Positions 4,219-39,491 are shown, counted from the first letter of the stretch. The stretch is DNA of 64,000 nucleotides from Nemertoderma westbladi (GCA_032718475.1 JAUCBJ010007204.1:1-64000), one strand, 5' to 3'. The notes: generated by a model not told the origin, from the letters alone. A program made the numbers and translations.

Positions 4219-4259
4219 TACCTTCATACAGACCACTGTAATTTGAGCCAAGTAATTGA

Positions 4260-10610: not shown

Positions 10611-11092
10611 TAACGTTTACACCCGCTCAAAACAACCTCTATTGGGTCTGGTTGGTTAATTAATAGTGTATGACATGAAGGAAGCACACCACCACTCAGC
10701 AGCATTAATGATAATGATATTGGTGAAGTTCGCATCACAGCGGATAGAACATATCGTGACCATAGAGCCAGAACAACACATACCACAATTTTTCAAAAAA
10801 AAAATTTTTCACCAAAATTACTCAAGATGGCGTTCTACATCTTATGTTAAAATCCTAGACTTGTATGTCAGTCCGTTTAGGAGATATGGAAAACCAGAAC
10901 AACCCACACAACATAGAAGTTGAAAACTGTTAGAGGTAAAACAACACATACCACACTTTCCCTATCATACTTTGCCAGGAAAAACACCATTCAATAGTCG
11001 AGGAATGACGTGAGTTCTTATGTTTCTGTGATAAAATCCTAGAGGTAAAACAACACACACAGACTAGAGTTAATGTTAAATTTCAGTATGTG

Positions 11093-12292
11093 TGTAAAAG
11101 CTTTTGTGGGATAACTGATTCGTTTGCCTTGCTGGCCAGTTCCCCCCCCGGTCGCTAGAATACTCTAAAAGGGATCTATAGGTAAAATAGTGCAAGCTAC
11201 CAGCTTATTGGCTGATGGGCTGTACGAAGGTATCTGGGTTCTGTTCGATCGGCCAACCAGCTTAGGGAGGTTGCCTTAGCCCTGCTGTCCGTATCGGCCA
11301 ATAGAATTTGAGTGGGCGTTGATTTTGACCTATCCCAGAGCTACTGAACTGAATTTCCTATCTGTATGCTCATCCTCTGTGTTGGACGGGAGCTTCGGGG
11401 AATAAGGGTAGTTGGTATCCTCGTATAGTTATTCTAGTCATATGATTCTTCATATGATTCTGTTGTTGTGTTCCCATTTTCCGCCATAACACCGGCTTTT
11501 GGGAAGAACTCCAGTAAAACTGCTTAAATTATCGAAAGTATAACTGTTACCTTAACTTACCTTACCTAACTCACTTAATTTAACTGCACTAATCATATTG
11601 TTTGTACTGTTATTTACCGTCAGTTATTAATTGTATATATTTGTTGATGAATTATTGCCCTTTGGAGAATACGGATAAATCACCCAAAATTCCCAATTTT
11701 CTTGATACACTACAGGTTAGAGAGACAGGCTATACATAACAATTGCGATTTATATCAATGTGGTGTGTATTGAATCTAATGTTATTTAGCAGACCCTACA
11801 TGAGTCAATTGCTGCTCTCTTTATGTGTGATCAAGTTTACTGACGGTCGGCAGAGTAGTGTGCATGATTGTGAGTGTGACTGGTAACAAAGCATTTCCTA
11901 AAGAATGCGCCTTATACTTTAATCATAAGCAGTATCGTTGCGTTTAGTATAAGTCCTAGTTCTGTTTAAATAGATAGAGCGCCACGTCCTAAAGGAACTG
12001 TTAATATTTCCCGAAAGCCAATAATATCTGTCAGAAATTAATTATTAACGATCTATCGAATAATACAGTAGGTTTACACTGCAACCTTACACTGCAATAA
12101 TAAAATTTAAGCATCCGAATTCAGCCTCCCGGGTGTAGATCCATCGGGTGAATGATCGCGCATGGGCTGACTTCGGCTAATGTTTTGTTTATTAGCATAA
12201 AATATTGTCGTATGCTAAAGGTGTTTTAATTAACTAAAAGACATATAAATTTTGGCAGGTTAAACTGCTAAAGGTCTTCAAAAGCGCGAACA
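11093..12292 (+). repeat. 5' LTR of element A (1200 bp)
   Basis: TGTAAAAGC...GCGCGAACA; direct repeat of 25216-26413 with about five differences by eye. Confidence 0.95.
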
Positions 12293-12303
12293 GTAACAGT
12301 TAT
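12293..12303 (+). promoter_or_regulatory. Non-canonical primer-binding site, complementary to LTR-internal 11540-11550
   Basis: GTAACAGTTAT abuts the LTR end, lacks the TGG start of a tRNA PBS, and is the exact reverse complement of ATAACTGTTAC (11540-11550). Confidence 0.6.
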
Positions 12304-14553: not shown

Positions 14554-17500
14554 ATGTCTGACACTCAACAAAACCTGTCAGACAGTCTGATCGATACAAC
14601 TATCTGCGACACAGATAGGAGTGTGGAGCGATTAAGAAAGGAGTTCAGCTCACCTCCTACTGCAAAAAAGGTCATCCCTCCAGTAGTATCAGACCCTAGG
14701 CTAATCCACCATAGGTCCATCATAGGCACTCGGGCACAGGTCAAACGGAACCAAGAGGCAGTTATCCTATCGCAGCAACATCTTGGTCAAGAACCTACTT
14801 CACAGCGACCCGATAGCTCCAGCAGTTCGGATACTGTAGAGCTGACCCCCGAACACGGAGTGCAGATGGCTGATACAGTCTACTCGGACCCCCTTCTTAC
14901 CCTTCCTGCTGCAGTGCTAACTACTATATTCATTGCGGTGGAGGAACATCAAGCCGACTGGGCGAGGAATAAGCGAGCGACCCAAGATAATTATGCGGGA
15001 TACGCCAGGGAAGAATTGATGTCTATTGTCGAGTCACAATGGAACTTTCCCGGACTCGGACTCCCGTTGGATCTGTCCGAGGCTACTTGGGAAGATATAC
15101 ACAGGATGGGAGTGGCTAAAGACACAATGGATCCAGCTGTTTGGAAGAGGTCGGCAGCAGGATATGTGCAGGGATTCTTCGGCTCCTTGGAGCGATTGGA
15201 AGAACAACTGTTTCGACAACCTCAAGGACCTCAAGAGCAGGAAGAGCTGCTATACCAAATACGCGAAAGAACCCTACGCATACGACTAATCCTCTCAGCC
15301 TTTGAGGAAACTTCCAAAAGAAGACAGGACACGTCGCTGCAGGTTGCTGTCAAAACTTGGTTACATCGGGTAGATCTTAAAGTACAGGAAACGGCCCAGT
15401 GGAAATCCCAGCTGGCTGAGAGATCAACCTATGAAGAACAAACTGATGTCACCCTTTCTCAAGCGGAAAGCGAAGAGACCGCCGAGAAACCGCGAACTAG
15501 AGACGCTATCGACATATATTTGTCCGACTATCAGCGATTCCTAGGAGACGAAGAGTTGAGGAGACGGCTGTCTGGACTTTCCCCTAATAGTGAAGGAACC
15601 AAGCTTGTGTTGGACTCAATCGATGCGGAAATGTTAGCTGCAAACCAAGCTGAATGTGATGAAAAACTCCGCCTCACTAGAGTCCGAGAAGAACAAGTAA
15701 AGAAAGAATGGATAGAGAAAAGAAAGGTGGCAGCAGCAGCGGCGGCAGAAGCAGAAGCCGAAAGAAAAGCGGCAGAAGCAGAAGCCGAAAGAAAGTCGGC
15801 AAAAGCAGAAGCCGAAAGAAAGGCGGCAGAAGCAGAAGCAGAAGCCGAAAGAAAGGCAGCAGAAGCAGAAGCAGAAAGAAAAGCAGCAGTGGCAGAAGCA
15901 GAAGCCGAAAGAAAGGCGGCAGAAGCAGAAGCAGAAAGAAAAGCAGCAGTGGCAGAAGCAGAACGTAGAGCTTCTGAGGAGACTATCCAATTGGAGTTGG
16001 AAAATCTGCAAGAGACGCAAGACAGTATAAATAAACAGTTTACTGCTAATCAAATGCAGATGATGAGAAAATCTACTCCCAAGCGCCAGGGATACACATC
16101 CTCGGAGGAAGGCGAGACTACCGATCCTGAAGGCGGAGGAAATAGATCTCATCTAAGTAGGCGTAGAAAAACATCTTATCGTCGCAAATTGCCTGATTTG
16201 CCCCCAGCTGTTAGAAGACAGCTAGCTAGCACAGACTTGAGTAGTATAGAACCTACAGCCCAAAGTATTAAAGTCCAAAGACTCTCTACAATAGTTGATG
16301 AGCCTGAGATAATTAGGCCAGTCGTTCCCAAAGTCACTTCTGTGTTAGAGACCCCTGTACTTCCAGAGCTTAACTCTAAATTCCCTTTACATAGTACTAC
16401 ACTGCCTGTACCCGGTGGAACAGTCCAAGAGAATATCTCTGTCCAGATAGCAGAGAGAGAAATCAAAAATTTGTCTCCCGTCGTCCCGCATCAGCCCGCT
16501 ACTATGTTGGCGACTCCCGCTTTGGCGGTTGAGTGGGTAGAAGAGGGACGGCGGGGGATGAATCTCCTGCTAGGACAGATGCAGGAGACTGTCCACCAAC
16601 TTAAGGGAACAGTGAGGGAAGGTAGAGCAGAGTTGCAAGAAGTGCAGCAAAGTATCGCACTAGAACGCGACAAATTAGTCAATATCCAAAAGGGCATACC
16701 AATACCCCCTGTAACATTGTGTCAACCTGTTAGGTCTGAAGTACTACATGCACAAGGTGTGGAGCCTACACGCATCTATACTGCTAGTGAAGTAGAAACT
16801 CCTATAGCAAACCCTATTAAGGGTGATTATACGCCTGTTGCTAATGATATTCCCTATAGACCTGATAATAATCCGAGAAATTTATATACCGATAATTCAA
16901 TATTAAATAACACGATGGCCCAAGAAAGTTTTACGCGTCAGATGGCTAGAACAGAAGCCCGCCAAGCGGTCAAAGTGGGAGAGATCGTCAAATTCAATGG
17001 AGATGAGATGAAATGGTTACCTTTCAACGAATATTACAAAGATAGCATACAGAACTCTGTACTATCTAACGGAGAGAAACTTAGATTCCTCATCAAGTGC
17101 TTGGAAGGACCTCCCAAGTTAATGGCGTTAAAGTTTATTGGACATCCAGATGGATTAAGACAAGTTTGGGATACATTAAACATCAGGTATGGTAACAAGG
17201 ATAACATAGCTAAGTATTTGTATGCAAAATTAGTAGCCCCCCGACACTTCCTTAGTAGCGGGATTATAGAGTTTTCCGATGAAATTCAAGAGATCTGTAG
17301 ACAACTGGACTGGTTAGGTAAGTCACATGAATATCAGAGTTCCATGGTTATTGGAGCCGTAGTCTCTACTTTACCAAAGGGTGGAGTATGTACACGCTGG
17401 GACAAGAAAGTGTTGTACATGAATGAACAACAACGACGAAGTCCTACCATGGCTGATCTCATGTCTTTCTTAGATAGTGAAGTAAAATTACAACTCATAA

Positions 17501-19257
17501 GGCCGTCCAGAGAGAAAACATCAGAAAATAAGGTAAGTGAGAAACCCGTTTCTAGGAGAAGGATAATACCAGTGTGTTATACTGACGAAGGCGAAAGCCA
17601 AGCTTCTCAAGAAGAGGACAGCGGGAAAGACACAGCAAAATCGTACTATGACAACAAGACCTATAAAGACGTAAGTAAATACAAGTCTCGAACCAGTGAC
17701 AGGAGAGAACAGGTAACAACAACTCCTCCTACGTCTCCTAAGAGAATTCCCGGAAGAAAGCCCGAAGAAAGAACGAGAGTGCATAACGTTAACCAAGTTA
17801 AGGTGAGTAACATCAAACCAAAATGTGCGCTGTGCGACGGGCCCCACCGTTTGAGTGCGTGTGCTGAATTTCTAAAGAAATCCCTTGTAGACAGACGTAC
17901 AGTCCTGTGGAATAAGCGGTTTTGCTATAATTGCCTCAGACCAGGACATCAACGGCGAACCTGTTACTCCGACATAAAGTGTGCAAAGTGTGGCGCGAAA
18001 CATCACATCTTGTTACACAGTGAGTTCGAACGAGACAGACAGAGTCAGGTAAGTGAGCCCGAACTACATGTCCAATTCAGTGACGTAAACGACACTGATC
18101 AAGAGTCTGAGATGGAAGGATTCTATACTGACGAATTCTCCGACGCCAATGAATCCTGTTATCTAATAAATACCGCAGTGTATCGAGCACTTACTTACGA
18201 AAAGGACATCAACGATGAGTTTCCCCCAACTACTTTCGCCAAACAACCATCTTGGAAAGCTCCAGCTTCCAACGTAGGAATCAGAGAATTTCCTGTAGTT
18301 CAAGTAAGAGTTCACGGTCTTAACAAAAGCTACATAGTGAACGCCCTCCTTGACTCCGGCAGCACAGGAACATTCATCGATCAAGAACTAGCCGAAGATA
18401 TCTTTGCTGGACAACCCAAGTTCCGGACTAAATTGAATATGTCAGGAATTATGCAGGTTTGGAAATCTACCCTAACGGCAGACTACTATGTAGGTGTGTT
18501 GTCCACCCCCCAGGATAAATTAGGAGCACAAGGTATAAGGTCGGTAAAAATGGTGGCTATAAAGAACTTCGCTACTACCCAAGCAGACCTTTATAATTGG
18601 GACGAGGATGAGAGCATCCAACATCTTAAGATACCTCGAGTCCAGACAGATTATCCTGGAGTGCAAATACTCATCGGCCAAAACGCGCATGAGGCGCTCG
18701 AGACATTGGAGAAACGGCCTGCTCAACCGCAGCCACTACAAACCTATGCGGTAAGAACTAGAGTAGGTTGGTACTTCACTGGCCCTTCCCATAGAACTCT
18801 CAAAGAGAGATTACCTCAACAACAGGTATACCAAGTAAAGGAATGGGAAGTGGAGAGCAGTGATGTGGACGATCCAACTGAGGGAACACCATACTCCTCA
18901 GATAATGACGATATTAACTCCGATGTAGATCAACGGAGACATTGCCTTGGGACAATTAATCCAGCCGACATCGATCCCAGAGGAGCAACTCCTCAAGAAC
19001 TGATGGATACTCCAGGCTGGTTAGGTGGATCCGACTTCTTAAGTAAAGAAGAAGATGAACGGCCTCCTCATCTTACCACGGCGGAGAGTAGACAGGCCAA
19101 GGGAGCGGAGAAAGTAACACGACAACCCAATCACCCAGCTGGTCGTTTATGTTTACTGGAAAGAAACCGGAAACTGTCCGGAAACTATGGAAGGCAAGAT
19201 ACTCTTCCTACGACCACTTCCCTAATCCGACAAATATCTAGGGACTCCATAACGTAA
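14554..19257 (+). CDS. gag: BEL/Pao-type Gag-aspartic protease polyprotein (1567 aa) with vestigial RNase H and integrase remnants
   Basis: Contains a capsid-like segment (KFNGDEMKWLPF...EKLRFLIKCLEG...RYG), three Cys/His knuckles (CALCDGPHRLSAC, CYNCLRPGHQRRTC, CAKCGAKHHILLH), protease ALLDSGS (~18343) and ILIG...TRVGW. These are followed by NPAD..RG....W..G..FL and RLCLLE. An AEAERKA repeat tract lies at ~15740-15970. Confidence 0.9.
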   Translation: MSDTQQNLSDSLIDTTICDTDRSVERLRKEFSSPPTAKKVIPPVVSDPRLIHHRSIIGTRAQVKRNQEAVILSQQHLGQEPTSQRPDSSSSSDTVELTPEHGVQMADTVYSDPLLTLPAAVLTTIFIAVEEHQADWARNKRATQDNYAGYAREELMSIVESQWNFPGLGLPLDLSEATWEDIHRMGVAKDTMDPAVWKRSAAGYVQGFFGSLERLEEQLFRQPQGPQEQEELLYQIRERTLRIRLILSAFEETSKRRQDTSLQVAVKTWLHRVDLKVQETAQWKSQLAERSTYEEQTDVTLSQAESEETAEKPRTRDAIDIYLSDYQRFLGDEELRRRLSGLSPNSEGTKLVLDSIDAEMLAANQAECDEKLRLTRVREEQVKKEWIEKRKVAAAAAAEAEAERKAAEAEAERKSAKAEAERKAAEAEAEAERKAAEAEAERKAAVAEAEAERKAAEAEAERKAAVAEAERRASEETIQLELENLQETQDSINKQFTANQMQMMRKSTPKRQGYTSSEEGETTDPEGGGNRSHLSRRRKTSYRRKLPDLPPAVRRQLASTDLSSIEPTAQSIKVQRLSTIVDEPEIIRPVVPKVTSVLETPVLPELNSKFPLHSTTLPVPGGTVQENISVQIAEREIKNLSPVVPHQPATMLATPALAVEWVEEGRRGMNLLLGQMQETVHQLKGTVREGRAELQEVQQSIALERDKLVNIQKGIPIPPVTLCQPVRSEVLHAQGVEPTRIYTASEVETPIANPIKGDYTPVANDIPYRPDNNPRNLYTDNSILNNTMAQESFTRQMARTEARQAVKVGEIVKFNGDEMKWLPFNEYYKDSIQNSVLSNGEKLRFLIKCLEGPPKLMALKFIGHPDGLRQVWDTLNIRYGNKDNIAKYLYAKLVAPRHFLSSGIIEFSDEIQEICRQLDWLGKSHEYQSSMVIGAVVSTLPKGGVCTRWDKKVLYMNEQQRRSPTMADLMSFLDSEVKLQLIRPSREKTSENKVSEKPVSRRRIIPVCYTDEGESQASQEEDSGKDTAKSYYDNKTYKDVSKYKSRTSDRREQVTTTPPTSPKRIPGRKPEERTRVHNVNQVKVSNIKPKCALCDGPHRLSACAEFLKKSLVDRRTVLWNKRFCYNCLRPGHQRRTCYSDIKCAKCGAKHHILLHSEFERDRQSQVSEPELHVQFSDVNDTDQESEMEGFYTDEFSDANESCYLINTAVYRALTYEKDINDEFPPTTFAKQPSWKAPASNVGIREFPVVQVRVHGLNKSYIVNALLDSGSTGTFIDQELAEDIFAGQPKFRTKLNMSGIMQVWKSTLTADYYVGVLSTPQDKLGAQGIRSVKMVAIKNFATTQADLYNWDEDESIQHLKIPRVQTDYPGVQILIGQNAHEALETLEKRPAQPQPLQTYAVRTRVGWYFTGPSHRTLKERLPQQQVYQVKEWEVESSDVDDPTEGTPYSSDNDDINSDVDQRRHCLGTINPADIDPRGATPQELMDTPGWLGGSDFLSKEEDERPPHLTTAESRQAKGAEKVTRQPNHPAGRLCLLERNRKLSGNYGRQDTLPTTTSLIRQISRDSIT

Positions 19258-20883: not shown

Positions 20884-23800
20884 ATGACGGAATTGATAGA
20901 AGATGACCTTGGTATCAGGGAGCGATATACTCTACCTTTACAAGCGTTTGTGGATAGCTTGATACGCGGTGAAGCCGATCCGACTATTACGGAGGACGAT
21001 GGTCGTTATATCGAACCGCCGATGTCCCAGGAACAACTTACGCGTGAATTGGACTATAGAAAATTCACCGCTCGCTATACGAATCGTAATGGTACGTATA
21101 TGGACTTCTTAACTACCGGCCATCCTACCGATTTACATGATACGGAAGATGTAGACACCGAAAGGGAAATGGTTTTATTTAAATATCATGCCCAGCGGAA
21201 TCGTAATGATAAACCGAGAATAGAACACGAGAACTCTATTCGCAACCTACTCGACAGAGAAAACGTTGAAGAACCCGATAAGCGCCTCAACTTCAACGAC
21301 TACTTGGAATTTTTGAGAGAAACCTATCTCAATATTGCCAGTCAACAGAACCTAGAGACTCGATATCCTCAAGGTATACATCACGATCCCATGGTAGAAC
21401 TCAAACGACTCTATTTCACCATGATGTATCTTACCGCAGATCGTCCACTGCCTGTTGTCCCGGACAGCTTTGAACAAATGGAAGAGTATTGCAAAACTGG
21501 AGAACGATCACCCGCGTTTCCTCTGCAGGACGTACGTCTTTGGTATTATTGTGACTCATGTCCTAGACCTAACCAGCAAACGGAAAGACATAAACATCCG
21601 CGGAGACGTTGTGCTAAACACAGTTTTACGCGTTATACTTACGGGAGTTTCGAGCGAAACCTGTTCGACGTATCACCTACGATCGCCCGTCTAAAACGCT
21701 CGCTAAATAAACCCATGATCAGAGTTCCGGAATACTCGGTCAGGCCTCCCCATTTCCCCGTGAGACCTCAAACTCTTGATCCTAACAGTATCACTGATCC
21801 TCCCGAGTTATACTCACTGTTCAAAGATTTGGTGTTACCCGAGCAGTTAATCGGTGGTGTTCCAGCGGTAGGTTCGTTAGATATTCGACCATCCTATTTA
21901 ACCGCATTGGGACGCGGGCATCTAACATCGCCATTTAATCCTTACAATCGGCCAGGATTAACTCCGATACAACCTGCCACGGAAGTCGAGGAGAGTGTCA
22001 TCAGAAACGCTCTAGACGCCATCCGACAGAAAATCGGAAAGGGAACCCAGGATTTTCTAGAGAAACGTAAATTACAGCAGCAGGTCCAATCGGTGAAAGA
22101 GTTAGCCTTGCCGCAGTTTGATAGAGAAATCCAAAACCTCGAAGAGGACATCGAGCTTGGACGTACGTATTCTCTACAGGAGTTTCTAGAAGAACGCTTA
22201 CAGAAACAAGCGGAGGAAAATCAACTAGAGGAGAAACATACGGAAATGGATGAGAGAGAAGAAGCCGCTTTAGCCCAACCCGAAGCTCAGATACTCATAA
22301 CCGATCTCTACTCTAAAACCGTCCGTCATCCCTCGATGGTTCCGCATTTCGGAGATAAACTTTTCGCAAAGATACAACCCCAACCGGTTGATATCAGCAT
22401 AAGATCGCAAAATCTTATCGCCGACGCTCCTATGTTACAGCGTCCGCCAATCGAGGCCGCTCGAGTTGACGGTATACTCGTTGAACCTCCGGACAATCGA
22501 GCGGATCTTGTCCGTCGTATGGTACACGATGTCAACATACGCGCTAGACCTTTACAGAACTCTTTTTATGGAATTAAAGACCACCCTTATTACGTTAATC
22601 TGACTCAATATTATATGGTCAAACCAGAAGATCCGACGCATAATTTAAAGTTTCTACCACTAATAAATCCTCTGGACATTGTCGAACTCGAACAATTACA
22701 AAAACATCTGGATCAGTTAGTAAAGGTAAACTCATTTCGAAAACCATATAACGTTTCTCGAATAGAGAAGGATACAGAACCTCCTTATAATCTCGATGGA
22801 TTTATTAAAACTCGATTAGTCCATTGGAATCTAGACGTATTATTCGAGGAGGAGAAAATACAACGATATGGAAATGTGGAGACGTATACCACTCGATACC
22901 TGAAGTATAGTGATCTCCCTGACGCTAATCAATGCGCCACCTTGTGGCATCCGGTAGGGATGACCCTCGAGAACGCCACCAAAGAGTGGAATGAAACTCT
23001 TAATATCATTGAGATGTATGGCGTTGTTACTTACGATAACGAAGGTAGCGTTCCAACCGGAGAATTAGGAACTACGCGCATGATACACATACGCGGATTA
23101 GCTGGTTCCACTCACGTGTTTACGCGAGCGTGTTCCGACGTGATAGATTATTCCTTTGAAACTCTCACCGAAACGCAAAAGAATCTCCGACATGGACAAT
23201 TCGAACTCGCGCAGCGTTACGTCATTGATACCGAACGCAAACCGGCCATGGGTATCGATGGATCAATGTTACCCCAGCCCGTTCTCGAGATGTTATTCAA
23301 CGAAAGAATCATTAAAATCGGCTCAGCTGTTTACGGAGATCTCCAAAACGACTTTCGGAATATGGAAAATATCCCCTATCCTTTCGTGGATACTCAGCTG
23401 ATAGCTCCTTGGGCCGAAGGCCGAGGTTTCTTCCGCACCATGTATGCTAATGCGTCTAGCGACATTACAAAGGTGCAACGAACTTCCATCGGACATCTTG
23501 CTTTTCAGGAATACGGATGGAATTTCAAGGTCGGAAACCCCATCAACTATCAACAAGTATACGGAGACCATTATTCTCGATTATACTTTGACGGACCGTT
23601 GACCGCACCTGGCGCCGTGTATAGCTTCATGAGTGTTCCACTCCGCCCCTCCTTAGCTATCTACACGATCTTCGAAAACACCGCACTTTCCGGTTGGCTA
23701 GCCGATGTGTGCAGTCGTACTATACGCGCCCATCCATTAATCCTTGGGACCAAACTCGCTAAGCTAGATGAACATAATAAATTCATCCGCTTTGAATGTT

Positions 23801-25137
23801 TCCGACGGTTTTTAACCCCGTTTCGCAATGTGGATAGCCAATTCAAAGACCGCGCTTTGACCAAGCTCAGCTTAAGAGACTCGGCTGCGGAGAAGTTAGA
23901 TAGTGCTGGATTTGCTATTTTCAAAGACGTTTGTATAATAAACCTGCACTCCTCGGTTATCCAAAGACCTCGGATCCCCACAGGTTATTCTGTCGTGGAA
24001 ATTCAGACGGTAGGTCCACTTGAAGAAACGGCCATACCTACCTCAACTATACAAGGGGAAGACGAACCCATATGTTTAGAATCTGAAGAGATTCAGCCCC
24101 CCACGTCTCGGAGTAGCGATAGCGACTACATATTGGAATGGTATCAAGGTCCACAGTGTCTCACTGCGTATGATTATCGCCATGCCAATTATGTTTCTCG
24201 ACAACGCTGTCGGCTGTGCGCATCGAGAGACCATATTACGTCTATGGACACCAACGATCTCTGTTCCTATTTCCACGAGCAACCGTCGATGGAAATCTAT
24301 TGTGCATATTGTCGGCTTAATAATTTGCATATTTTTGCTGTCTGTCCCCAATTTATGACTCAATGCCATCATTGTCAATTAAAAGGACACGCCAGCTTTG
24401 ATTGTCCCTTTAATCATGATTTAGAGAGCGTAGATGAAATGATTGTACTACATTATATCAGAGCTTGGGAAGCGAACGCTGATTTACATTGTGATTCACG
24501 CCATCGCTATTACCCTGGACGCGCTTACGAAGGAGTTTATGCGTTCCATCCTTATTTGTTTGCCTCCGTCGAGCAGAAATCACGCCTATCAAGTTATGAA
24601 CTATTGAAACGCGTTGGAGAATGTATTTCAACTAAATATGTACGCAAATTTCTCAGGAGCATTAATCCGAGTGACATCAATTCTTACAACTTAATAAACT
24701 TTATCCGTCAAGATCCGGCCTATGGAGACTTGTTTGTCAACTCACACCCCGAGTTACAGGAAGTGTATCGACGGCCTTACGAGTATCGAGCCCGCGAACG
24801 CGAGTTGGAAAGAACCATTAAACCAAGGAAGTTTCTAACTGCCTATGGTCCACCCACGGCCCTCGTTCAGACCACTCATAAAGGACCCGTAAGAGAGGCT
24901 GTCTTGAAACGAGCTCTTAAAGCCGTTAGACCCCTCTCCCCGGACGTTGATGTCAATCAACCCGGTACGTCGACCGGCGGATATACCGATCGTAATCCCA
25001 TACCTTCTGATGCAATCATATTGCACCCTTCACCCAGGAGTTATAGCCCTCCTTGTAAAGTGGCTCGCCCCAAAGAGAAAAGGACTCTTGCTAGCCTTAA
25101 AAAACTGCGTAAACGCCGTCCGCGCAAGAAAGACTAA
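20884..25137 (+). CDS. Element-borne 1417-aa ORF2: DEDDy 3'-5' exonuclease-like domain, CCHC zinc knuckles, basic C-terminus
   Basis: Uninterrupted ORF inside the LTRs. Motifs: ExoI VVTYDNEG (D718/E720), LPQPVLEMLFNERIIKIG, ExoII ..YGDL (D819), FVDTQLIA, SIGHLAFQEYG, and ExoIII-like PL...YTIFE (Y927/E931). Zinc knuckles: CRLCASRDH, CAYCRLNNLHIFAVC, CHHCQLKGHASFDC. It ends KKLRKRRPRKKD. Confidence 0.8.
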   Translation: MTELIEDDLGIRERYTLPLQAFVDSLIRGEADPTITEDDGRYIEPPMSQEQLTRELDYRKFTARYTNRNGTYMDFLTTGHPTDLHDTEDVDTEREMVLFKYHAQRNRNDKPRIEHENSIRNLLDRENVEEPDKRLNFNDYLEFLRETYLNIASQQNLETRYPQGIHHDPMVELKRLYFTMMYLTADRPLPVVPDSFEQMEEYCKTGERSPAFPLQDVRLWYYCDSCPRPNQQTERHKHPRRRCAKHSFTRYTYGSFERNLFDVSPTIARLKRSLNKPMIRVPEYSVRPPHFPVRPQTLDPNSITDPPELYSLFKDLVLPEQLIGGVPAVGSLDIRPSYLTALGRGHLTSPFNPYNRPGLTPIQPATEVEESVIRNALDAIRQKIGKGTQDFLEKRKLQQQVQSVKELALPQFDREIQNLEEDIELGRTYSLQEFLEERLQKQAEENQLEEKHTEMDEREEAALAQPEAQILITDLYSKTVRHPSMVPHFGDKLFAKIQPQPVDISIRSQNLIADAPMLQRPPIEAARVDGILVEPPDNRADLVRRMVHDVNIRARPLQNSFYGIKDHPYYVNLTQYYMVKPEDPTHNLKFLPLINPLDIVELEQLQKHLDQLVKVNSFRKPYNVSRIEKDTEPPYNLDGFIKTRLVHWNLDVLFEEEKIQRYGNVETYTTRYLKYSDLPDANQCATLWHPVGMTLENATKEWNETLNIIEMYGVVTYDNEGSVPTGELGTTRMIHIRGLAGSTHVFTRACSDVIDYSFETLTETQKNLRHGQFELAQRYVIDTERKPAMGIDGSMLPQPVLEMLFNERIIKIGSAVYGDLQNDFRNMENIPYPFVDTQLIAPWAEGRGFFRTMYANASSDITKVQRTSIGHLAFQEYGWNFKVGNPINYQQVYGDHYSRLYFDGPLTAPGAVYSFMSVPLRPSLAIYTIFENTALSGWLADVCSRTIRAHPLILGTKLAKLDEHNKFIRFECFRRFLTPFRNVDSQFKDRALTKLSLRDSAAEKLDSAGFAIFKDVCIINLHSSVIQRPRIPTGYSVVEIQTVGPLEETAIPTSTIQGEDEPICLESEEIQPPTSRSSDSDYILEWYQGPQCLTAYDYRHANYVSRQRCRLCASRDHITSMDTNDLCSYFHEQPSMEIYCAYCRLNNLHIFAVCPQFMTQCHHCQLKGHASFDCPFNHDLESVDEMIVLHYIRAWEANADLHCDSRHRYYPGRAYEGVYAFHPYLFASVEQKSRLSSYELLKRVGECISTKYVRKFLRSINPSDINSYNLINFIRQDPAYGDLFVNSHPELQEVYRRPYEYRARERELERTIKPRKFLTAYGPPTALVQTTHKGPVREAVLKRALKAVRPLSPDVDVNQPGTSTGGYTDRNPIPSDAIILHPSPRSYSPPCKVARPKEKRTLASLKKLRKRRPRKKD

Positions 25138-25207
25138 CTGTTTAGAGTATTTTTATATTTTAGAAACTGTGATTTTGTATATTTTATAGACTTAAATCCT
25201 ATTTTCT

Positions 25208-25215
25208 GGGAGCGG
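25208..25215 (+). promoter_or_regulatory. Short polypurine-tract-like sequence
   Basis: GGGAGCGG immediately precedes the 3' LTR; it is short and imperfect. Confidence 0.5.
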
Positions 25216-26413
25216 TGTAAAAGCTTTTGTGGGATAACTGATTCGTTTGCCTTGCTGGCCAGTTCCCCCCCGGTCGCTAGAATACTCTAAAAGGGATCTA
25301 TAGGTAAAATAGTGCAAGCTACCAGCTTATTGGCTGATGGGCTGTACGAAGGTATCTGGGTTCTGTTCGATCGGCCAACCAGCTTAGGGAGGTTGCCTTA
25401 GCCCTGCTGTCCGTATCGGCCAATAGAATTTGAGTGGGCGTTGATTTTGACCTATCCCAGAGCTACTGAACTGAATTTCCTATCTGTATGCTCATCCTCT
25501 GTGTTGGACGGGAGCTTCGGGGAATAAGGGTAGTTGGTATCCTCGTATAGTTATTCTAGTCATATGATTCTTCATATGATTCTGTTGTTGTGTTCCCATT
25601 TTCCGCCATAACACCAGCTTTTGGGAAGAACTCCAGTAAAACTGCTTAAATTATCGAAAGTATAACTGTTACCTTACTTACCTTACCTAACTCACTTAAT
25701 TTAACTGCACTAATCATATTGTTTGTACTGTTATTTACCGTCAGTTATTAATTGTATATATTTGTTGATGAATTATTGCCCTTTGGAGAATACGGATAAA
25801 TCACCCAAAATTCCCAATTTTCTTGATACACTACAGGTTAGAGAGACAGGCTATACATAACAATTGCGATTTATATCAATGTGGTGTGTATTGAATCTAA
25901 TGTTATTTAGCAGACCCTACATGAGTCAATTGCTGCTCTCTTTATGTGTGATCAAGTTTACTGACGGTCGGCAGAGTAGTGTGCATGATTGTGAGTGTGA
26001 CTGGTAACAAAGCATTTCCTAAAGAATGCGCCTTATACTTTAATCATAAGCAGTATCGTTGCGTTTAGTATAAGTCCTAGTTCTGTTTAAATAGATAGAG
26101 CGCCACGTCCTAAAGGAACTGTTAATATTTCCCGAAAGCCAATAATATCTGTCAGAAATTAATTATTAAAGATCTATCGAATAATACAGTAGGTTTACAC
26201 TGCAACCTTACACTGCAATAATAAAATTTAAGCATCCGAATTCAGCCTCCCGGGTGTAGATCCATCGGGTGAATGATCGCGCATGGGCTGACTTCGGCTA
26301 ATGTTTTGTTTATTAGCATAAAAGATTGTCGTATGCTAAAGGTGTTTTAATTAACTAAAAGACATATAAATTTTGGCAGGTTAAACTGCTAAAGGTCTTC
26401 AAAAGCGCGAACA
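25216..26413 (+). repeat. 3' LTR of element A (1198 bp)
   Basis: Direct repeat of 11093-12292, followed by the TSD ATGTG. Confidence 0.95.
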
Positions 26414-27029
26414 ATGTGTTGTTTTGCCTCTTTGGAAAATAACGAAAAAAACAGTTTTTTTCATTAACAAAATTTATTCTGAATGCTAGCCACTATTAGA
26501 AAATGTATCATTGTATCTTCCCAGACCTCTGTCGAAAAAATTAGGAGACGGGATCCATATAGAGGGAAATGAGAAGGTTTTTTGCATTTTTCTCGAAACC
26601 ACATTTGTTGGTGAGTGTTGTTCTGGCTCTTTGGTCACGATATGAACAACGCAAGAATGCTCGCGAACGCTACCAACGGCGCATTGGTCGTTCCACCGAG
26701 GGGACACTGTCTGCTGTGCAATCGTCCTCTGCACTCCCTACCTTTTCCGGAGGTAGAAAGGTGCAGAGCCAAGGAGTGAGTGCTACGGTTTCTGTATCCG
26801 ATCCATCGATAGCCACTGCTGCGAACTATCTACATAATGTTAGTAGTGTCTCCACTGATGATGAAGTTTCTCTTTCTAGTCCCCAAAACCTAGGAATGAG
26901 AAATGCGACGACCAATATCCAGGAATCTGGTGATGTAGTTAGTGAGTTTTGTGTCGATCCGGTTGGTTCAGTCTTCACAGTCAGGTTGACTACGTCATCA
27001 ATCGGGTGATTGCCTAGGTAGTAGGCCTA

Positions 27030-27860: not shown

Positions 27861-29057
27861 TGTAATGGCTTTTGCGGATCTAACTAGTTATTTTCCCCGC
27901 AAAGTACTCTGTAGGTGTTTTAACGGACATAAAAAGCCGTTTCCTTACTGTACCGGTGTTTTAGTGGACATAAAAGCCATTTCTTCTATATGTGTACTTT
28001 AGCGGACATAACTACTGTGTACTTTAGCGGACATAACTAGCGATCTTATGTCGCAATAGCCAAAATCCTCTTGACACAGTGTAGTTACTATGACGACGGC
28101 TAACAGCTGATCTGTACACGTGGAGGTTTTCCTTTGTTCTCTGTCGTTTCTTTGTTCGGTCGACCAATCAGAGCGTTTTTTTTGACTCTGTGTTGGAGGT
28201 TGTATACAGAAACTCAGGAATTGAGTCAGTATGTGCATTTGGTCCTGGGCCCAGAAGACCGGCTTTGGAATCTCTGTGTTTTCAGTCTTTAGCCCAACAT
28301 TAGTAGGCTTAATTATAGAACGTATATCTGTTATCTTACAAACCACAAACCAATTCATATCTACAAACACCGCATTTTACTGCTATTTACTGTCGGTCAT
28401 TAATTATATCAGTTGTTTGATGGAATATTATTATATTGGATAATATCGATAAATTAATCATAAAACCCTCAATCTTCTTGATATACTGAAGGTAAGAGAG
28501 ACCGGTTACATATAACGATTGCGACTTACATTAAAGTGGTTTTGAAGTGAATCTAATGCTATTTCATAGGCACTACATGTATTGGTTGTTGTTCTCTTTA
28601 TATGTGACTAAAATTAGTGAAGGTCGGCAGATCGGTGTGCAGCATTGTGCAGTATTCTGTATGATTGTGACTGATAACAAAGCATCTCCTAAAGAATGCG
28701 CCATATACGTGAATCCATAGCCATCCCGTTGTGTCTAGTTAAAGTCATAACTCTGTTTATATATTTAGAGCGCCACGTCCTAAAGGAACTGTTAATATTT
28801 CCCGAAAGTTAATAATATTTGTCAGAGATTATATATTACGATCAGTCGAATAATACAGTAGAGTAGGCCTACACCGCAATAAGGTTAGGCTTCCGAATCC
28901 AGTCTCCCGGGTATATCCAAGGGGTGAATGGTCGCGCATAGACTGGCTTCGGCTAATGTAGTGTATCAAATACTCGTCATAGGCTAAAGTCGATTTATTA
29001 TCTAGAAGACATCCAAATTTGGCAGGTTAAACTGCTAAAGGTCTAAAAGCGCAAACA
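27861..29057 (+). repeat. 5' LTR of element B (~1197 bp)
   Basis: TGTAATGGCTTTTG...GCGCAAACA. The 3' two-thirds align with the element A LTR; the 5' part is diverged and has short (TTTAGCGGACATAA)-like repeats. Confidence 0.85.
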
Positions 29058-32000
29058 ATAACAGATATAGCTTCTGTATTGCAGTAGGCAATAAAGCTGA
29101 AGTACCGGTCAACCGGTACCTAGTAGGCCTGACTACCTAACCACCCGGACTGGTACCTACAGCAGTACAGGTACCGTACAGCAGTATTATTTCGATTGTG
29201 ATATATTGTATATTGTAGGCTGTTAGGGGATTAGGGATTGATCACCCCTTATTCCTTTGTATGGTTTACTTATTTCTGTCAGTTTTATTTATTTGTAGGC
29301 CAATATTGAGCAGAAGGCGTGTAAGCCTGCTCAGATTGTACAGATAATTTGTAGGCTGGACTGTTGTCTGACTGTCGTTAAGTCTGAAGGGACTGTAGTG
29401 TGTGTAGAGCGTATGTCCGAAAAAGTACTAGTTAGGAAAGTAGGGGCTTCCAGTGCTGTGAGGTAAACCCCCTCGAAAGAATAAGTCGTACTACTCGGTT
29501 AGAACGCATACTAACTAACCATTTCGGAGTCTGCATATACTGTAGTTTATTTAGGCTTGATAGTAGTCTGTCAGCGTTTGGTCTGTATTTTGTTTGAGTA
29601 GTCTGTACGCGTAGCGTAATATTTATTATTCAGAGTTTATGCGATTATTCGCAACATTCATATCCCCAAGTTAATTCCTACAGTAATTGTGCTTGTTATA
29701 TATACCGTTATAGTTAAACTAACCCCGGTACTACATCAGGGCTGCTTGGCGTAGGTAAAGACTGGTGATTTTGTGCCCCGGTCACTCCAGCAGATACCGT
29801 GGTTCTTTTAGCTATTCAAGTATTTTTAACTACTGATTATTGGTTGTATAAGTACTTGTACCTAATTTAGGGTTTAGTGTACAGTGCTTTCCGAAGGTAA
29901 TTAGTGTGTAGGCAGTGTATTTGTGTTGTAAAGTGGTTAATAGGCACGTTGGTTCTCGTAGACCGCGGTAATTAACTTCTAGGTAGGAACACTCCGTGAT
30001 ACATAACGTAGTACTTATAGCGATACGGCTATAAGTCGTCAGACGGTGGTATTTTTCCTATCTGGAAATATATTTATAAAATAGTAGGCCTGTCTTACAA
30101 CAATTAGGTCTCAATATCAGTTGGACTACTGCTCAAATAACAGTAATAAAGTAAGTAAAGTAACCAAGTAACCCCTAAAAATTCAGAAATTCAATTATTT
30201 AAAATAATTGACATACCGGTATTTACAATAGGCTTATTATATTTATTTCTATAAATTTAGGCTGAAATCATACCGGTATTCTGTAATTAATTCTAGTCTG
30301 TAATTATACTTATATATATACTATAAGTAAGCTGTATACCGATATTCACGATAGGCCTATTATATATTTATAAATTTAGGCTGAAATTATACCGGTATTC
30401 TGTAATTAATTCTAGTTCATAATTATACTTATATATACTATAAGTGTAAGCTGTATACCGGTATTCACAATAGGCCTATTATATATTTATATATATTTGT
30501 GCTGAAATTACATACCAGTATTCTGTGACAAACCTAGTCTGTAATAATACTTATATATATATACTATAGGTGTATACCGGTATTCTAATATATTATATAT
30601 ATATATCACGCTACACTGAGTAGCAGTATCGGTAATTAATTACTAGGCTAACAGTTGATACTGAATTACTAGACTTGCTTTAACTGTAATATAGCAGTAG
30701 GCATTCACCTGTACAAACAAACATGTCTGACACAAAGCAAAACCTGTCAGACAGTCTCCTAGATACAACCATCTGTGACCCAGACAAGAGTGTGGAACGT
30801 GTGAGACCGAAGTTCAACTCACCTCCTACTGTAAGAAAGATCATCCCTCCAGTAGTAGTATCAGACCCTAGGCTAGTCCAACACCGTAGGTCTATCATAG
30901 GCACTCGAGCTCAGGTCAAGCGGGACCAAGAAGCAGCGGAACAGCGGCAACACTCGAGCCGAGAACTTATTTCTCAGCGGCCCGACAGCTCCAGTAGTGA
31001 GGATACTGTAGAGCTGACACCCGAGCACGGAGCAAAGATGACAGATGCGGTTTATTCGGATCCCCTTCTCATCCTTCCTGCAGCCGTACTCACTAGGGTA
31101 TTGATTGCGGTGGAGGAACACCAGATTGATTGGGCGAGAAGTAAGCGATCGACTAAGGATAGTTATGCGGGATACACAAGGGAAGAACTGAAGTCTATTG
31201 TCGAGTCGCAATGGAACTTCCCCGGACCCGGACTCCCGTTTGACTTATCGGAAGCTGCCTGGGAAGACATACACAGGATGGGAGTGACAAAGGAAACCAG
31301 CGATCCAGCTGTGTGGAAGAGGTCAGCAGCCGGATACGTACAGGGATTCTTCAGCTCCATGGAGCGATTAGAGGAACAATTGTTTAGACAACCACAAGGA
31401 CCTCAAGAGCAGGGAGAGCTGCTTTATCAAGTTCGAGAAAGAATTCTAAGAATCAGACTAATCCTATCGGCCTTTGAGGAGGCTTCGAAAAGAAGACAAG
31501 ACACGTCGTTGCAAGTTGCCGTAAAGACTTGGTTACAGCGGGTGAGTCTCCAAGTTCAAAGAACTGCCCCGTGGAAATCTCAGCTGGCTGAGCGCTCAAC
31601 CCTTGGAGAATCAACAGACGCTACCTTTTCACAAGTGGAAAGCGAAGCGACAGCAGAGAAACCGCATAAGAGGGATGTTATTGACATCTATCTGTCAGAC
31701 TATCAACGCTTTGTAGGTGATGAAGAGTTGAGGAGAAGGCTAGATGGACTTAGCCCTAATAGTGAAGGAGCCAAGCTTGTGTTGGACGCTATCGATGCGG
31801 ATATGAGAGCTGCGAACCAAGCTAAATTTGATGAACGCCTCCGTATCGCTAGAGTCCAAGAAGAACAAGTAAAGAAAAAACGTATAGAAGACAGAAAGAC
31901 AGCGGCAGTGGCAGCAGCAGTGGCAGCGGCAGAAGCAGAAAGAAAGGCGGCAGAGGTAGAAGCCGAAAGAAAGGCGGCAGAGATAGAAACAGAAAGAAAG

Positions 32001-34319
32001 GCAGCAGAGGTAGAAGCCGAAAGAAAGGCGGCAGAGATAGAAGCAGAAAGAAAAGCGGCAGTGGCAGCGGCAGAAGCAGAAAGGAGAGCGTCTGAAGAGA
32101 TCGCCCAACTAGATTTGGAAAATATTCAAGAGAATCAAGACTGCATAAATAAACAGTTAACAGCTAGTCAAATGCAGATGATGAGTCGATCTACTCCCAA
32201 AAGACAGGGATATACATCATCTGAGGAAGGCGATACAACCGATACTGAAGGCGGAGGAAATAGATCTCGTCTAAGCAGACGTAGAAGAATATCCCACCGT
32301 CAGAAATTGCCTGATTTGTCCCCAGCTGTTAGAAGGCAACTAACTAACACCAACTTAGGTAGTACAGAACCCACAGACCAAATAATTAAAATAGAAAAAC
32401 TCCCTACTATAGTAGATGAGCCTGAAATAATTAGGCCTGTTCTCAAAGCCACCCCTTCGGTGATAGAGACACCTGTACTCCCTGAACCTACCTCTAAATT
32501 CCCTCTGCACAGCACTAAGCTACCTGTGCCCCACAGAACCACCCTTGAAAATGTTCATGTCCTGGACTCCGAGCGAAATATTAATGATTTGTCGCCCGTT
32601 GTCCCTCGTCCGCCCGCTACAACGTTGGCGCCTCCCGCTTCGGCGGTCGAGTGGGTAGATGAGGGACGACGGGAGATGGGTCTCCTGCTCGGGCAGCTGA
32701 GGGAACACCGTTCCCGCTCCTCTCAGCAAGTCCAGGAGATGGAGGGGATTGTGCAGCAGTTAAAGGGAACAATTAGAGAGAGTAGGTTAGAGTTGCAAGA
32801 AGTGCAGCAAAGTATCACGTTAGAACGCGATAAATTAGTAAATACACAAAAGGGTATACCACCACCCCCTGTAACAATATGTCAACCTGTTAGGTCTGAA
32901 GTATTTCATGCGCAAGGTGTGGAGCCTACACGCATCTATACTGCTAGCGAAGTGGAAACTCCTATAGTAAACCCTATTAAGGGTAATTATAAACCTGTTG
33001 ACAATGATATCCCATATAGACTTGATAATAATCCGAGAAATTTATATACCGATAACTCGATATTAAATAACACGATGCCCCAAGAAAGTTTTACGCGTCA
33101 AATGGCTAGAACCGAAGCCCGTCAAGCGGTAAAGGTAGGAGAGATCGTTAAGTTCAATGGAGATGAGATGAAATGGTTACCTTTTAATGAATATTACAAA
33201 GATAACATACAGAACTCTGTGCTATCAAACGGAGAGAAACTTAGATTCCTCATCGAGTGCTTGGAAGGATCTCCCAAGTTAATGGCGTTAAAGTTTATTG
33301 GACATCCCGATGGATTAAGACAAGTTTGGGATACCCTAAACATCAGGTATGGTAATAGGAATAACATAGCTAGGTATTTGTATGCAAAATTGGTAGCGCC
33401 CCGAAAATTCATTAGCAGCGGGATTATAGAGTTTTCTGATGAGATTCAGGAGATCTGTAGACAATTAGATTGGCTAGGTAAGTCTCATGAATATCAGAGT
33501 TCTATGGTTATTGGAGCTGTGGCCTCTACTTTACCGAAGGGTGGAGTAGGTACACGCTGGGATAAGAAAGTGTTATATATGATGGAACAGCAACGACGAG
33601 ACCCTACCATGGCTGATCTCATGTCATTCTTGGATGGAGAAGTGAAATTACAACTCCTAAAGCAGTCCAGAGAGAAGACACCGGAAAACAAGGTAAGTGA
33701 GAAACCCGTTTCTAGGAGAAAGGTAACCCCAGTGTGTTATACCGACGACGGCGAAAGCCAGGCTTCTCAAGGAGAGGACAGCGGGAAAGACACTGAAAGA
33801 TCTTATGTCAACAAAACGCCTAAAGATGTAAGTAAATTCAGGTCTCGAACCAATGACAGGAGAGAACAGGTAAGAAAAACCCCTCCTACGTCTCCTAAGA
33901 GAATTCAAGTAAGAAAGCCCGAAGAAAGAACGAGTGTGCACAACGTTACTCAAAATAAGGTAAGTAACATCAAACCGAAATGTGCGCTGTGTGACGGGCC
34001 CCACCGTTTGAATGTGTGTGATGAATTCCTAAAGAAATCATTAACAGATAGACGGGAAGTCATATGGGATAAGCGGTTGTGTTATAATTGCCTCAGACAA
34101 GGACACCAACGGCGAACCTGTTACTCCGACGCAAGGTGTGCAAAGTGCGGTGCGAAACATCATATCTTGTTGCACACTGAATTCGAGCGAAACAGCCCGA
34201 GTCAGGTAAGTGAGTCCGAACTACATGTCCAATTCAGTGATGTGAATGACACTGACCAAAGTTCTGAGATGGAAGGATTCTATACGGACGAATTCTCCGA
34301 CGAAGACGAATCCTGTTAC
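27861..34319 (+). mobile_element. Second, diverged member of the same LTR family (element B), 3'-truncated
   Basis: LTR, leader and gag are collinear with element A. Similarity stops abruptly after GAATCCTGTTA (~34319); no 3' LTR or ORF2 is in the window. Confidence 0.9.
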
Positions 34320-39358: not shown

Positions 39359-39491
39359 TGTACAATATTGTGACTCCGCCACAATATTCGATTTAAATAA
39401 AGTACGTACCCGTATTTCACTTTCAGGCACTCATTTCGTATTTCACTCAGTCGCTTACGCTCGTTCTTAATAAAATTTATTCGAATAAGTA

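Follow-up and report, generated by a model that had tools for sequence, protein, structure and literature searches.

RNase D-like DEDDy exonucleases are a described cargo of LTR retrotransposons: such accessory ORFs were published in 2017 for Gypsy-type LTR and Athena elements of rotifers, and 3′-end processing of element RNA was proposed as their role (PMC5408684, available portion). What this cargo does in LTR retrotransposons has been a standing question since 2017. Elements of the Belpaoviridae measure 4.2-10 kb, encode a full pol and optionally an env, and have an 18-nt primer site for tRNA-Arg or tRNA-Gly (PMC8742986). In Tf1-type elements, the primer is an RNA 5′ end freed by a cut (PMC4600332, 10.1101/2022.12.06.519325, PMC6317226, available portions), and self-priming proceeds without a nuclease gene of the kind described below (PMC4600332, 10.1101/2022.12.06.519325, in the portions available). 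Our literature search for DEDDy accessory ORFs in BEL/Pao elements found none. The locus analyzed here carries such a candidate, termed ORF2; given the 2017 publication of DEDDy ORFs from LTR retrotransposons (PMC5408684, available portion), it is less novel than the initial annotation implied.

A young BEL/Pao-type insertion with an accessory ORF

The window, the whole 64,000-nucleotide stretch of Nemertoderma westbladi DNA that was analyzed, contains a 15.3-kb element with a 5-bp target duplication. ORF2 lies between the LTRs of this BEL/Pao-type element, in line with the retroelement setting initially proposed. Its parts are:

11088..11092, + strand: left copy of the target site duplication, an identical 5-mer on both flanks
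11093..12292, + strand: 5′ LTR, 1200 bp, TG...CA, 99.6% identical to the 3′ LTR
14554..19257, + strand: ORF1, 1567 aa, BEL/Pao gag (DUF1759, three Cys/His knuckles), aspartic protease (D1267) and a short tail
20884..25137, + strand: ORF2, 1417 aa, accessory ORF, stop 78 bp upstream of the 3′ LTR
25208..25215, + strand: likely PPT, a short purine-rich tract preceding the 3′ LTR
25216..26413, + strand: 3′ LTR, 1198 bp, from the pairwise LTR comparison
26414..26418, + strand: right copy of the target site duplication, matching the left 5-mer

The host element of ORF2 is a young, recent LTR insertion. Its LTRs differ by 3 mismatches and 2 gap columns (5 differences over about 1200 columns), and the empty-site joint 11087-26414 was recovered in three of four runs, with one contig per run and 19-29 letters on the short side. 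In the sequencing runs the family is both abundant and diverse, with 124,404 contigs in run X1; contig depth was not taken as copy number, and coverage of ORF2 in run X4, possibly an RNA run, was left out of account. Arrival of ORF2 as a separate insertion within the element was rejected: no repeat pair of at least 60 bp flanks it, and its end lies 78 bp from the LTR.

In a Pfam search, ORF1 matched DUF1759, which we take to be a marker of BEL/Pao gag, above the cut-off (E=9e-12); the protease (Asp_protease_2, E=0.002-0.019) and knuckle matches were weak. The order of DUF1759 gag, knuckles and protease, the TG...CA LTRs, the target duplication and the PPT are BEL/Pao features. Of the BEL/Pao pol (RT, RNase H, integrase), the Pfam search of ORF1 returned neither RT nor integrase, and the 1.6-kb gap between ORF1 and ORF2 holds no frame of 150 aa. 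An NPAD...W..G motif located 202 aa beyond the protease Asp, at which Pfam gave no match, is presumably a remnant of the RNase H end. The 15.3-kb element is thus a non-autonomous derivative of BEL/Pao type, without RT or integrase in the present copy.

The exonuclease-like domain of ORF2

Three regions of ORF2 were considered separately:

20884..22980, + strand: N-terminal half, about 700 aa, with a Cys/His cluster at residues 223-247
22981..23718, + strand: predicted DEDDy exonuclease domain of RNase D type (residues about 700-945), containing two insertions
24208..24405, + strand: three Cys/His clusters, residues 1109-1127, 1140-1154 and 1161-1174

The DnaQ-like DEDDy fold put forward by the initial annotation is supported, as a prediction, by NCBIfam (RNase D TIGR01388, E=0.0013; PRK10829, E=0.0097), by the ESM Atlas, where 25 of 30 matches to the domain were RNase D-like, and by profile alignments to RNase D-like proteins (72-87%). 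As judged by an HMM built from 25 bacterial RNase D domains, the central match exceeds chance: ORF2 scored 18.5 bits, equaled by none of 300 shuffles (best shuffle, 1.0), and two of three bacterial sub-profiles gave little or no signal. The domain falls below every curated cut-off. Pfam, to which the earlier reading had looked for the exonuclease, returned no such domain at E<=10; PHROGs gave nothing useful, and a PDB sequence search missed the exonuclease domain. A glutamine synthetase match in the PDB sequence searches (E 0.7-1.2) was dismissed as chance, and a phage tblastn with ORF2 gave nine unannotated matches at E=9.

All catalytic candidates named at the outset are in place: D718 (nt 23035), E720 (23041), D819 (23338), D836 of FVDTQ (23389), Y927 (23662) and E931 (23674). 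Their assignment differs in strength. Block profiles ranked the predicted ExoII and DTQ sites first across all 1417 aa (12.8 vs -3.7 and 15.6 vs 8.4, respectively), and by this measure the ExoII assignment (D819 with the DTQ motif, D836) is firm. The ExoI profile ranked D718 only fifth, and the ExoIII profile placed the predicted site outside the first five. Several alignments align D718/E720 with the family ExoI motif and others use different registers, including ExoI at D755 or D782; D718/E720 is the best local match within the domain to ExoI of the relative described below (P0001), with 29 of 500 shuffles scoring as well. The D718/E720 register is favored by a small margin and is not unique.

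In alignment A5, which combines ORF2, P0001 and 16 bacterial DEDDy domains, D718, E720, K811, D819, L920 and Y927 are invariant. ExoIII departs from Y-x3-D in that the Asp column, four residues after the invariant Tyr, is occupied by Glu in both ORF2 (E931) and P0001, which bears out the suspected replacement of the final catalytic Asp. On these alignments, we class the domain as DEDDy-like (DEDE-y) and not as a canonical member; its activity may be weak or absent because the last catalytic Asp is Glu.

P0001 was the single relative of ORF2 recovered from 1.84 billion representatives. It shares the layout of ORF2, exonuclease followed by three knuckles, has the same Glu, and retains D62, E64, D130, Y229 and E233 at about 30% identity. 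A two-sequence profile of ORF2 and P0001 gave alignments of 146-159 columns, and against the RNase D set the three motifs all fell in register. For the knuckles of P0001, retroviral nucleocapsid and Air2 were the best PDB matches; the alignment-based PDB search matched the knuckles alone. Word-based homologue searches with ORF2 regions returned none, the two-sequence alignment retrieved P0001 alone, no relative turned up in viral or metagenome contigs that were scanned, an exact look-up of four window proteins in the protein collection found none, and tblastn of ORF2 across the window gave only the self-match. By sequence comparison, ORF2 and P0001 appear to constitute a very divergent two-member family in which the Asp-to-Glu change is conserved and knuckles are fused to the domain.

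Both the DnaQ-like fold and the catalytic register are predictions. The unguided single-sequence AlphaFold model of the domain failed, at a pLDDT of 31. An alignment-guided model reached 58.6 (core blocks 72-91), a circular result since its alignment contained the 16 bacterial DEDDy domains. Foldseek with this guided, circular model matched RNase D, WRN and Rrp6, with the WRN exonuclease second, and Egalitarian chains and Nibbler EXO also among the matches.

The exonuclease domain is under purifying selection. Among the best-supported 40 of 158 variants, 34 were synonymous (23-30% expected), none of the six non-synonymous ones hit a catalytic codon, and the rough omega was 0.05-0.07; the variants listed include no indel in the domain. 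Across the whole of ORF2, just 7 of the 14 variants listed were synonymous.

Outside the domain, the proposed tandem CCHC knuckles held in part. The cluster at 1161-1174 is a canonical CX2CX4HX4C; that at 1140-1154 reads CX2CX5HX4C, and that at 1109-1127 is atypical. Pfam gave zf-CCHC_3 at E=0.002, under its cut-off. Pfam, NCBIfam and PHROGs gave no usable match to the N-terminal half, and neither did the ESM Atlas (residues 90-340) or, from residue 80 on, the search of the representatives. A basic C-terminal tail, a putative NLS, is visible in the translation, and no HRDC domain was found in ORF2. An env identity was rejected, as the top 19-residue Kyte-Doolittle average is 1.36, the N-terminus is acidic and the start is not signal-like.

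A self-complementary primer site

The position at which a primer would bind in this element is complementary to its own LTR, and the same holds for a second element in the window:

11540..11550, + strand: candidate self-primer, complementary at all 11 nt to the primer-binding position
12293..12303, + strand: primer-binding position, immediately 3′ of the 5′ LTR, no TGG start
25662..25672, + strand: second copy of the primer-complementary site, in the 3′ LTR
28324..28334, + strand: second element, primer-complementary LTR site, perfect complement of 29058-29068
29058..29068, + strand: second element, primer-binding position with two compensatory changes
30723..34322, + strand: second element, ORF1 (gag), about 80% identical to ORF1 and ending after the knuckles

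The complementarity is perfect over 11 nt at offset 0, against a background of 7 in 12,885 internal 11-mers. All 11 positions are complementary in both elements, with the changes at duplex positions 4 and 11 compensated (two sequences compared), and crossed site pairs are weaker (-5.7 and -6.5 kcal/mol) than own pairs (-11.7 and -10.5 kcal/mol). Assuming that the RNA starts there, pairing probabilities at 11540..11550 were 0.69-1.0. The primer site together with its compensatory changes is a self-priming signature, and it adjoins ORF2 in a group that is officially tRNA-primed.

Neither element has a TGG start after the LTR, the sign looked for of an 18-nt site of the tRNA-Arg or tRNA-Gly type; an internal fragment of a host tRNA would still be a conceivable primer. 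ARAGORN detected no tRNA in the window and Rfam nothing in 11000-35000, so no element-encoded tRNA primer is present by these searches. A splice-built primer was considered and set aside as unnecessary: each LTR holds the site uninterrupted, with no AG immediately before it. ORF1 of the second element has a dN/dS of 0.21; tblastn found no ORF2 remnant of this element within the window, where the element is cut off earlier.

Candidate roles of ORF2 and comparison with known systems

We tentatively read ORF2 as a conserved accessory gene whose predicted domain, joined to zinc knuckles, would bind element RNA and trim 3′ ends, its most probable task being to mature the 3′-OH of the self-primer. 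Because the primer site complements the element's own LTR, ORF2 likely processes element RNA and may help to make the primer; this complementarity raises the standing of primer maturation among the roles suggested by the initial annotation. The knuckles would hold element RNA, and pairing would occur between the LTR site and the primer-binding position. As substrate we envisage an RNA carrying the LTR site upstream of its own 3′ end, either in the 3′ LTR copy of the genomic RNA or in a short transcript of the LTR that ends at the LTR poly(A) signal (AATAAA at 26220 in the 3′ LTR, downstream of the copy at 25662-25672). The exonuclease would shorten this RNA 3′ to 5′, stall at the duplex and leave the primer, with reverse transcriptase presumably supplied in trans by an element other than those observed. 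Such a route would differ from that of Tf1, since a 3′-5′ exonuclease cannot make the Tf1 internal cut.

In its most specific form, this reading describes a BEL/Pao lineage that self-primes, in which a dedicated DEDE-y exonuclease with knuckles trims the RNA 3′ end down to the 11-bp duplex and pol is borrowed from a partner. We consider that complete scheme unlikely; if true, it would be a third priming route of LTR elements, using neither a tRNA nor a Tf1-type internal cut. Against primer maturation, ORF2 and the primer site are tied solely by their co-presence in one element, and the second element shares the site yet is cut off before any ORF2. Further points against it are that self-priming of the Tf1 type proceeds without such a gene, that Glu stands for the last catalytic Asp, that the ExoI register has a small margin, that 7 of the 14 variants listed over all of ORF2 are synonymous, and that half of the protein has no usable match.

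It is possible, if doubtful, that the domain has little or no catalysis and that ORF2 acts as an RNA-binding adaptor in the manner of Egalitarian, EXD1 or Maelstrom, delivering RNP to particles or germ cells. Maelstrom and EXD1 are inactive DEDD derivatives that retain RNA binding (PMC5408684, available portion). The Glu that ORF2 and P0001 both carry at the final Asp position, the tandem knuckles with a long N-terminal half lacking a usable match, and the Egalitarian chains among the Foldseek matches of the guided model would all fit such a protein. However, four acidic positions and the Tyr are kept in ORF2 and P0001 despite about 30% identity, and dead exonuclease derivatives usually lose charge, whereas Asp to Glu is a conservative change.

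Counter-silencing, in which ORF2 would trim, degrade or sequester host piRNAs or siRNAs, is rather improbable. Nibbler/Mut-7 and EXD1 have the DEDDy-type fold and act in small-RNA pathways, and Nibbler EXO was among the Foldseek matches; the abundance and diversity of the family in the runs (124,404 contigs in X1) and the recent insertion are also compatible with this role. However, no sequence evidence places the domain with Mut-7/Nibbler or EXD1 in preference to RNase D, and in the available portion of the rotifer study copy number showed no clear relation to ORFs of this kind (PMC5408684).

Action on DNA, in which ORF2 would enter the nucleus and trim either the ends of cDNA or intermediates of integration, seems quite unlikely. 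The second Foldseek rank of the WRN exonuclease (guided model) and the basic C-terminal tail point in this direction, but LTR integrases process their ends themselves, the best sequence profiles are those of RNase D, and the knuckles resemble the RNA-binding nucleocapsid and Air2. The precedent would be the DEDDy exonucleases of some Dada transposases, proposed to process 3′ ends in transposition (PMC3706591, available portion).

A partial or accidental likeness, in which resemblance to RNase D stops at the central ExoII region and the fold or function is another, is very improbable: the missing Pfam, PHROGs and PDB sequence matches, the pLDDT of 31 for the single-sequence model, the little or no signal from two of three bacterial sub-profiles and the ExoI and ExoIII blocks that are weak alone speak for it, but several independent methods point to one and the same family, and the two-sequence profile, aligning across 146-159 columns, keeps all three motifs in register with the RNase D set.

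Primer maturation, the preferred reading, comes with a defined substrate: on an RNA tail above the 11-bp duplex, it could be distinguished in vitro from an RNA adaptor and from counter-silencing.

Compared with the PF01612 clan (RNase D, Rrp6, WRN-exo, EXD2, Mut-7/Nibbler, Egalitarian), ORF2 appears to have the ExoI DxE, ExoII Asp, DTQ and ExoIII Tyr in common order and register; unlike these, it has Glu for the last Asp, insertions at about 750-795 and 860-915, and no HRDC found. Some Dada DNA transposons likewise combine a DEDDy exonuclease with a eukaryotic transposon, but theirs sits inside the DDE transposase and retains all four DEDD residues (PMC3706591, available portion). Tf1/Tf2, Tj1, Tf1/sushi, plant Tcn1 and TAR share with the ORF2 element an own-LTR-complementary position after the 5′ LTR and the absence of a tRNA site; that group comprises Gypsy chromoviruses or Copia, whereas the present element is of BEL/Pao type (PMC4600332, 10.1101/2022.12.06.519325, PMC6317226, available portions). 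Belpaoviridae have the DUF1759 gag, protease, 1.2 kb LTR and short PPT in common with it and differ from its 15.3 kb length, missing RT and integrase, nuclease-like ORF and 11-nt self-complementary site (PMC8742986).

A close parallel is ORF3 of Juno, Vesta and Athena/Terminon in bdelloid rotifers, like ORF2 an RNase D-like DEDDy ORF that sits where an LTR element would carry env, with no transmembrane segment, an Asp-to-Glu motif change and predicted activity (PMC5408684, available portion). The rotifer motif is written DEED, whereas in ORF2 the Glu sits at the last position (PMC5408684, same portion). ORF2 differs in its 1417 aa, three knuckles and 700-aa half without a usable match, and its element, likened to the rotifer hosts by description only, is of BEL/Pao type, is devoid of RT and integrase and carries a primer site complementary to its own LTR. 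Young, intact and under selection, ORF2 would extend the nuclease cargo of LTR retrotransposons to the BEL/Pao group.

Anatomy of the element carrying ORF2

ORF2, an accessory frame with an RNase D-like domain followed by three knuckles, lies in an LTR element. Aligned with each other, the 5' and 3' LTRs of this element show 3 mismatches and 2 gap columns. A 5-bp duplication stands on both sides of it, and just before the 3' LTR comes a short run of purines. A joint skipping the entire element was found in three of four sequencing runs (one contig each) and suggests an empty allele, with short sides of 19–29 letters that fall within the tool's warning range.

Features of the element and of the rest of the window
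11093–26413: LTR element hosting ORF2; two LTRs and a flanking duplication
11093–12292: 5' LTR; starts TG, ends CA
12304–14553: non-coding leader, unusually long (2.2 kb), with short tandem and 290-bp duplications
14554–19257 (+): ORF1, gag and protease frame, 1567 aa
19258–20883: non-coding spacer before ORF2, unusually long (1.6 kb)
20884–25137: ORF2, 1417 aa, inside the LTR element
25216–26413: 3' LTR; starts TG, ends CA
28306–34322: second BEL/Pao-type element, ~82% identical over gag; ends after the gag knuckles, U3 region unalignable
1389–2966 (+), 26990–27865 (+), 52133–52915 (−): non-LTR retrotransposon fragments with RT and AP-endonuclease matches
3434–4223, 38157–41139, 49309–51467, 55925–61955: tandem arrays; unit lengths 18, 21/43, 63 and 39 bp

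Pfam finds DUF1759 in ORF1 (E = 9e-12); the frame also has Cys/His knuckles and encodes an aspartic protease. About 200 residues past the protease Asp lies a motif that we take to be the end of the BEL RNase H, over which Pfam gave no match, and the frame then ends. ORF1 holds neither RT nor integrase, and the 1.6-kb gap between ORF1 and ORF2 contains no frame of 150 aa; this copy is therefore a non-autonomous BEL/Pao derivative. Deletion derivatives without the exonuclease domain also exist (joints 21246–24056 and 22624–24978, one run each).

Elsewhere in the window, an intronless 742-aa STAT-like gene (43417–45645, +; Pfam STAT_int, DNA-binding, linker and SH2) may represent a retrocopy or else a compact paralogue. 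It is flanked on each side by an intronless DXD-type glycosyltransferase ORF (PF04488; 36323–37366 and 47898–49109, +), the two sharing 95% identity over 880 bp. Among the tandem arrays, those with 21/43-bp units are inverted relative to each other, and 38486–40016 has 210-bp inverted arms.

Constraint and predicted fold of the ORF2 domain

The domain (residues ~700–945; 22981–23718, +) is under purifying constraint. Across 22990–23730, the four runs gave 158 listed differences and no indel, along with one low-depth joint that skips 160 bases. Among the 40 best-supported of these differences, 34 were synonymous against 23–30% expected (p < 1e-12; rough omega 0.05–0.07), and none of the 6 non-synonymous ones fell in a catalytic codon. 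In a wider comparison, 14 differences were listed for ORF2, and 7 of them were synonymous; ORF1 compared with that of the second element (30723–34322, +) gave a dN/dS of 0.21.

The initial annotation had described a DEDDy exonuclease joined to CCHC knuckles, and the residues it named are all in place in ORF2. The PF01612 match it looked to as a check did not appear, Pfam returning no exonuclease on ORF2 at E ≤ 10; PHROGs and a PDB sequence search likewise returned none. NCBIfam reported two RNase D matches, with E = 0.0013 and 0.0097, both falling far short of its curated cut-offs, and tblastn against 72,556 plasmid records gave a single match, an rnd gene (E = 3). In the ESM Atlas, 25 of 30 domain matches fell in one set, and 50% of the proteins in its best cluster have PF01612; the score was 0.92 (160/256 features), a range in which shuffled proteins reach 0.9 in 4–10 of 100 cases.

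We compared the domain with 63 bacterial PF01612 domains. The RNase D set (25) scored 18.5 bits, which none of 300 shuffles reached, the EXD-like set (16) 2.2 bits (best shuffle 1.7), and the short set (22) gave no signal (58 shuffles as high). Block profiles run over the whole of ORF2 gave the top rank to D819 for ExoII and to D836 for the DTQ motif, but only the fifth rank to D718 for ExoI; the ExoIII profile did not find the predicted site. An additional Cys/His cluster (21550–21624, residues 223–247) lies in the N-terminal half, for which Pfam, NCBIfam and PHROGs gave no usable match.

HMMER searches with residues 80–1279 against 1.84 billion protein representatives found no relative besides P0001, a 648-aa singleton from one 9.4-kb contig (E = 7e-6), which shares 30% identity with ORF2 across the domain. 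Like ORF2, it has the exonuclease domain followed by three knuckles, keeps D62, E64, D130 and Y229, and carries Glu at the last catalytic position. Pfam matches P0001 itself to PF01612 at E = 0.2. A suspected similarity past the knuckles proved no better than chance: 474 of 500 shuffles scored as high. The joint ORF2–P0001 profile matched the RNase D set over 146 columns (probability 72%), with the three motifs all in register, and the pooled bacterial set over 159 columns (87%); for the other two sets the probabilities were only 4% and 0.7%. When both proteins were aligned with 16 bacterial DEDDy domains (18 sequences), D718, E720, K811, D819, L920 and Y927 were invariant and E931 sat in the Asp column. 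The ExoI register is not unique, since an insertion of 30–40 residues lets D755 or D782 serve in other alignments; the local score for D718/E720 was equalled by 29 of 500 shuffles.

Unguided, single-sequence structure prediction gave no usable fold (pLDDT 31). The alignment-guided model (pLDDT 58.6, pTM 0.60; core blocks 72–91, insertions <50) places D718–E720 on a strand with two more strands after it, and its best Foldseek matches were RNase D (E = 3e-4), WRN, Rrp6, Egalitarian, Nibbler and EXD2. Because 16 of the 18 alignment rows are already DEDDy proteins, the model shows no more than compatibility with the predicted fold and catalytic register.

A covarying primer complement in two elements

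The bases after the 5' LTR of the ORF2 element have no TGG start. Instead, 12293–12303 is a perfect complement of 11540–11550 within the LTR, a property shared by only 7 of 12,885 internal 11-mers. A splice-donor-like site at 12315 lies within a hairpin just past this primer position. The second element, which within the 64-kb window has no 3' LTR and no ORF2, has an LTR ~75% identical over the alignable part, with two changes in the LTR site (28324–28334) and two in the primer position (29058–29068). They fall at the same duplex positions, so its pairing is still perfect, and crossed pairs between the two elements lose about half of the energy. Folds starting at the LTR site gave helix pairing probabilities of 0.69–1.0. 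Two BEL/Pao-type elements in the window carry a self-priming signature with two compensatory changes.

Similarity between the LTRs of the two elements begins ~20 bases upstream of the LTR site, which would fit a nearby U3/R border and leaves the RNA start unfixed. The 3' LTR repeats the site at 25662–25672, upstream of AATAAA (26220), so genomic RNA would carry it near the 3' end wherever transcription starts.

Possible roles of ORF2 and known systems

ORF2 is predicted to work like a DEDDy exonuclease or an RNA-binding derivative of one; we do not count it among the canonical members, since Glu stands in place of the last Asp. Its product may be an RNA-binding 3'–5' trimmer acting on element RNA. 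Such an enzyme would be unable to free a 5'-terminal primer as in Tf1; it could shorten RNA carrying the LTR site and stall at the duplex. We tentatively favour this role in primer formation, enzyme and primer being linked solely by co-occurrence in one element. What the initial annotation observed in ORF2 holds, and its interpretation is supported in part. A near-inactive RNA adaptor, a reading to set beside the Glu at the last position, is somewhat unlikely, and a counter-silencing factor is unlikely. DNA-end processing seems improbable, and an erroneous fold assignment, given the RNase D profile matches, very improbable.

The ICTV profile of the Belpaoviridae (PMC8742986) describes tRNA-primed elements of 4.2–10 kb that encode gag and pol and, optionally, env. 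Within a literature scope of mostly non-subscription papers, which does not establish absence from print, we found no report of an exonuclease ORF, self-priming or a pol-less element in BEL/Pao, and the accessible parts of PMC3118150, PMC11662393 and PMC6086898 report none of the three. Self-priming is known for Tf1/sushi, Tcn1 and TAR (PMC6317226, PMC4600332, 10.1101/2022.12.06.519325, PMC3601003 and PMC5443660), and Dada transposases contain a DEDDy domain (PMC3706591). DEDDy exonuclease ORFs in LTR elements are already known from rotifers: Juno and Vesta LTR elements and Athena/Terminon elements carry RNase D-like DEDDy ORF3s in which DEDD has become DEED and whose activity is unproven (PMC5408684), an account repeated in PMC6431247 and PMC5718144. 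ORF2 resembles these ORF3s as RNase D-like DEDDy cargo and differs in its BEL/Pao host group; new with it are this host group, a very divergent protein family, the fusion to knuckles and a pol-less carrier with a self-priming signature.
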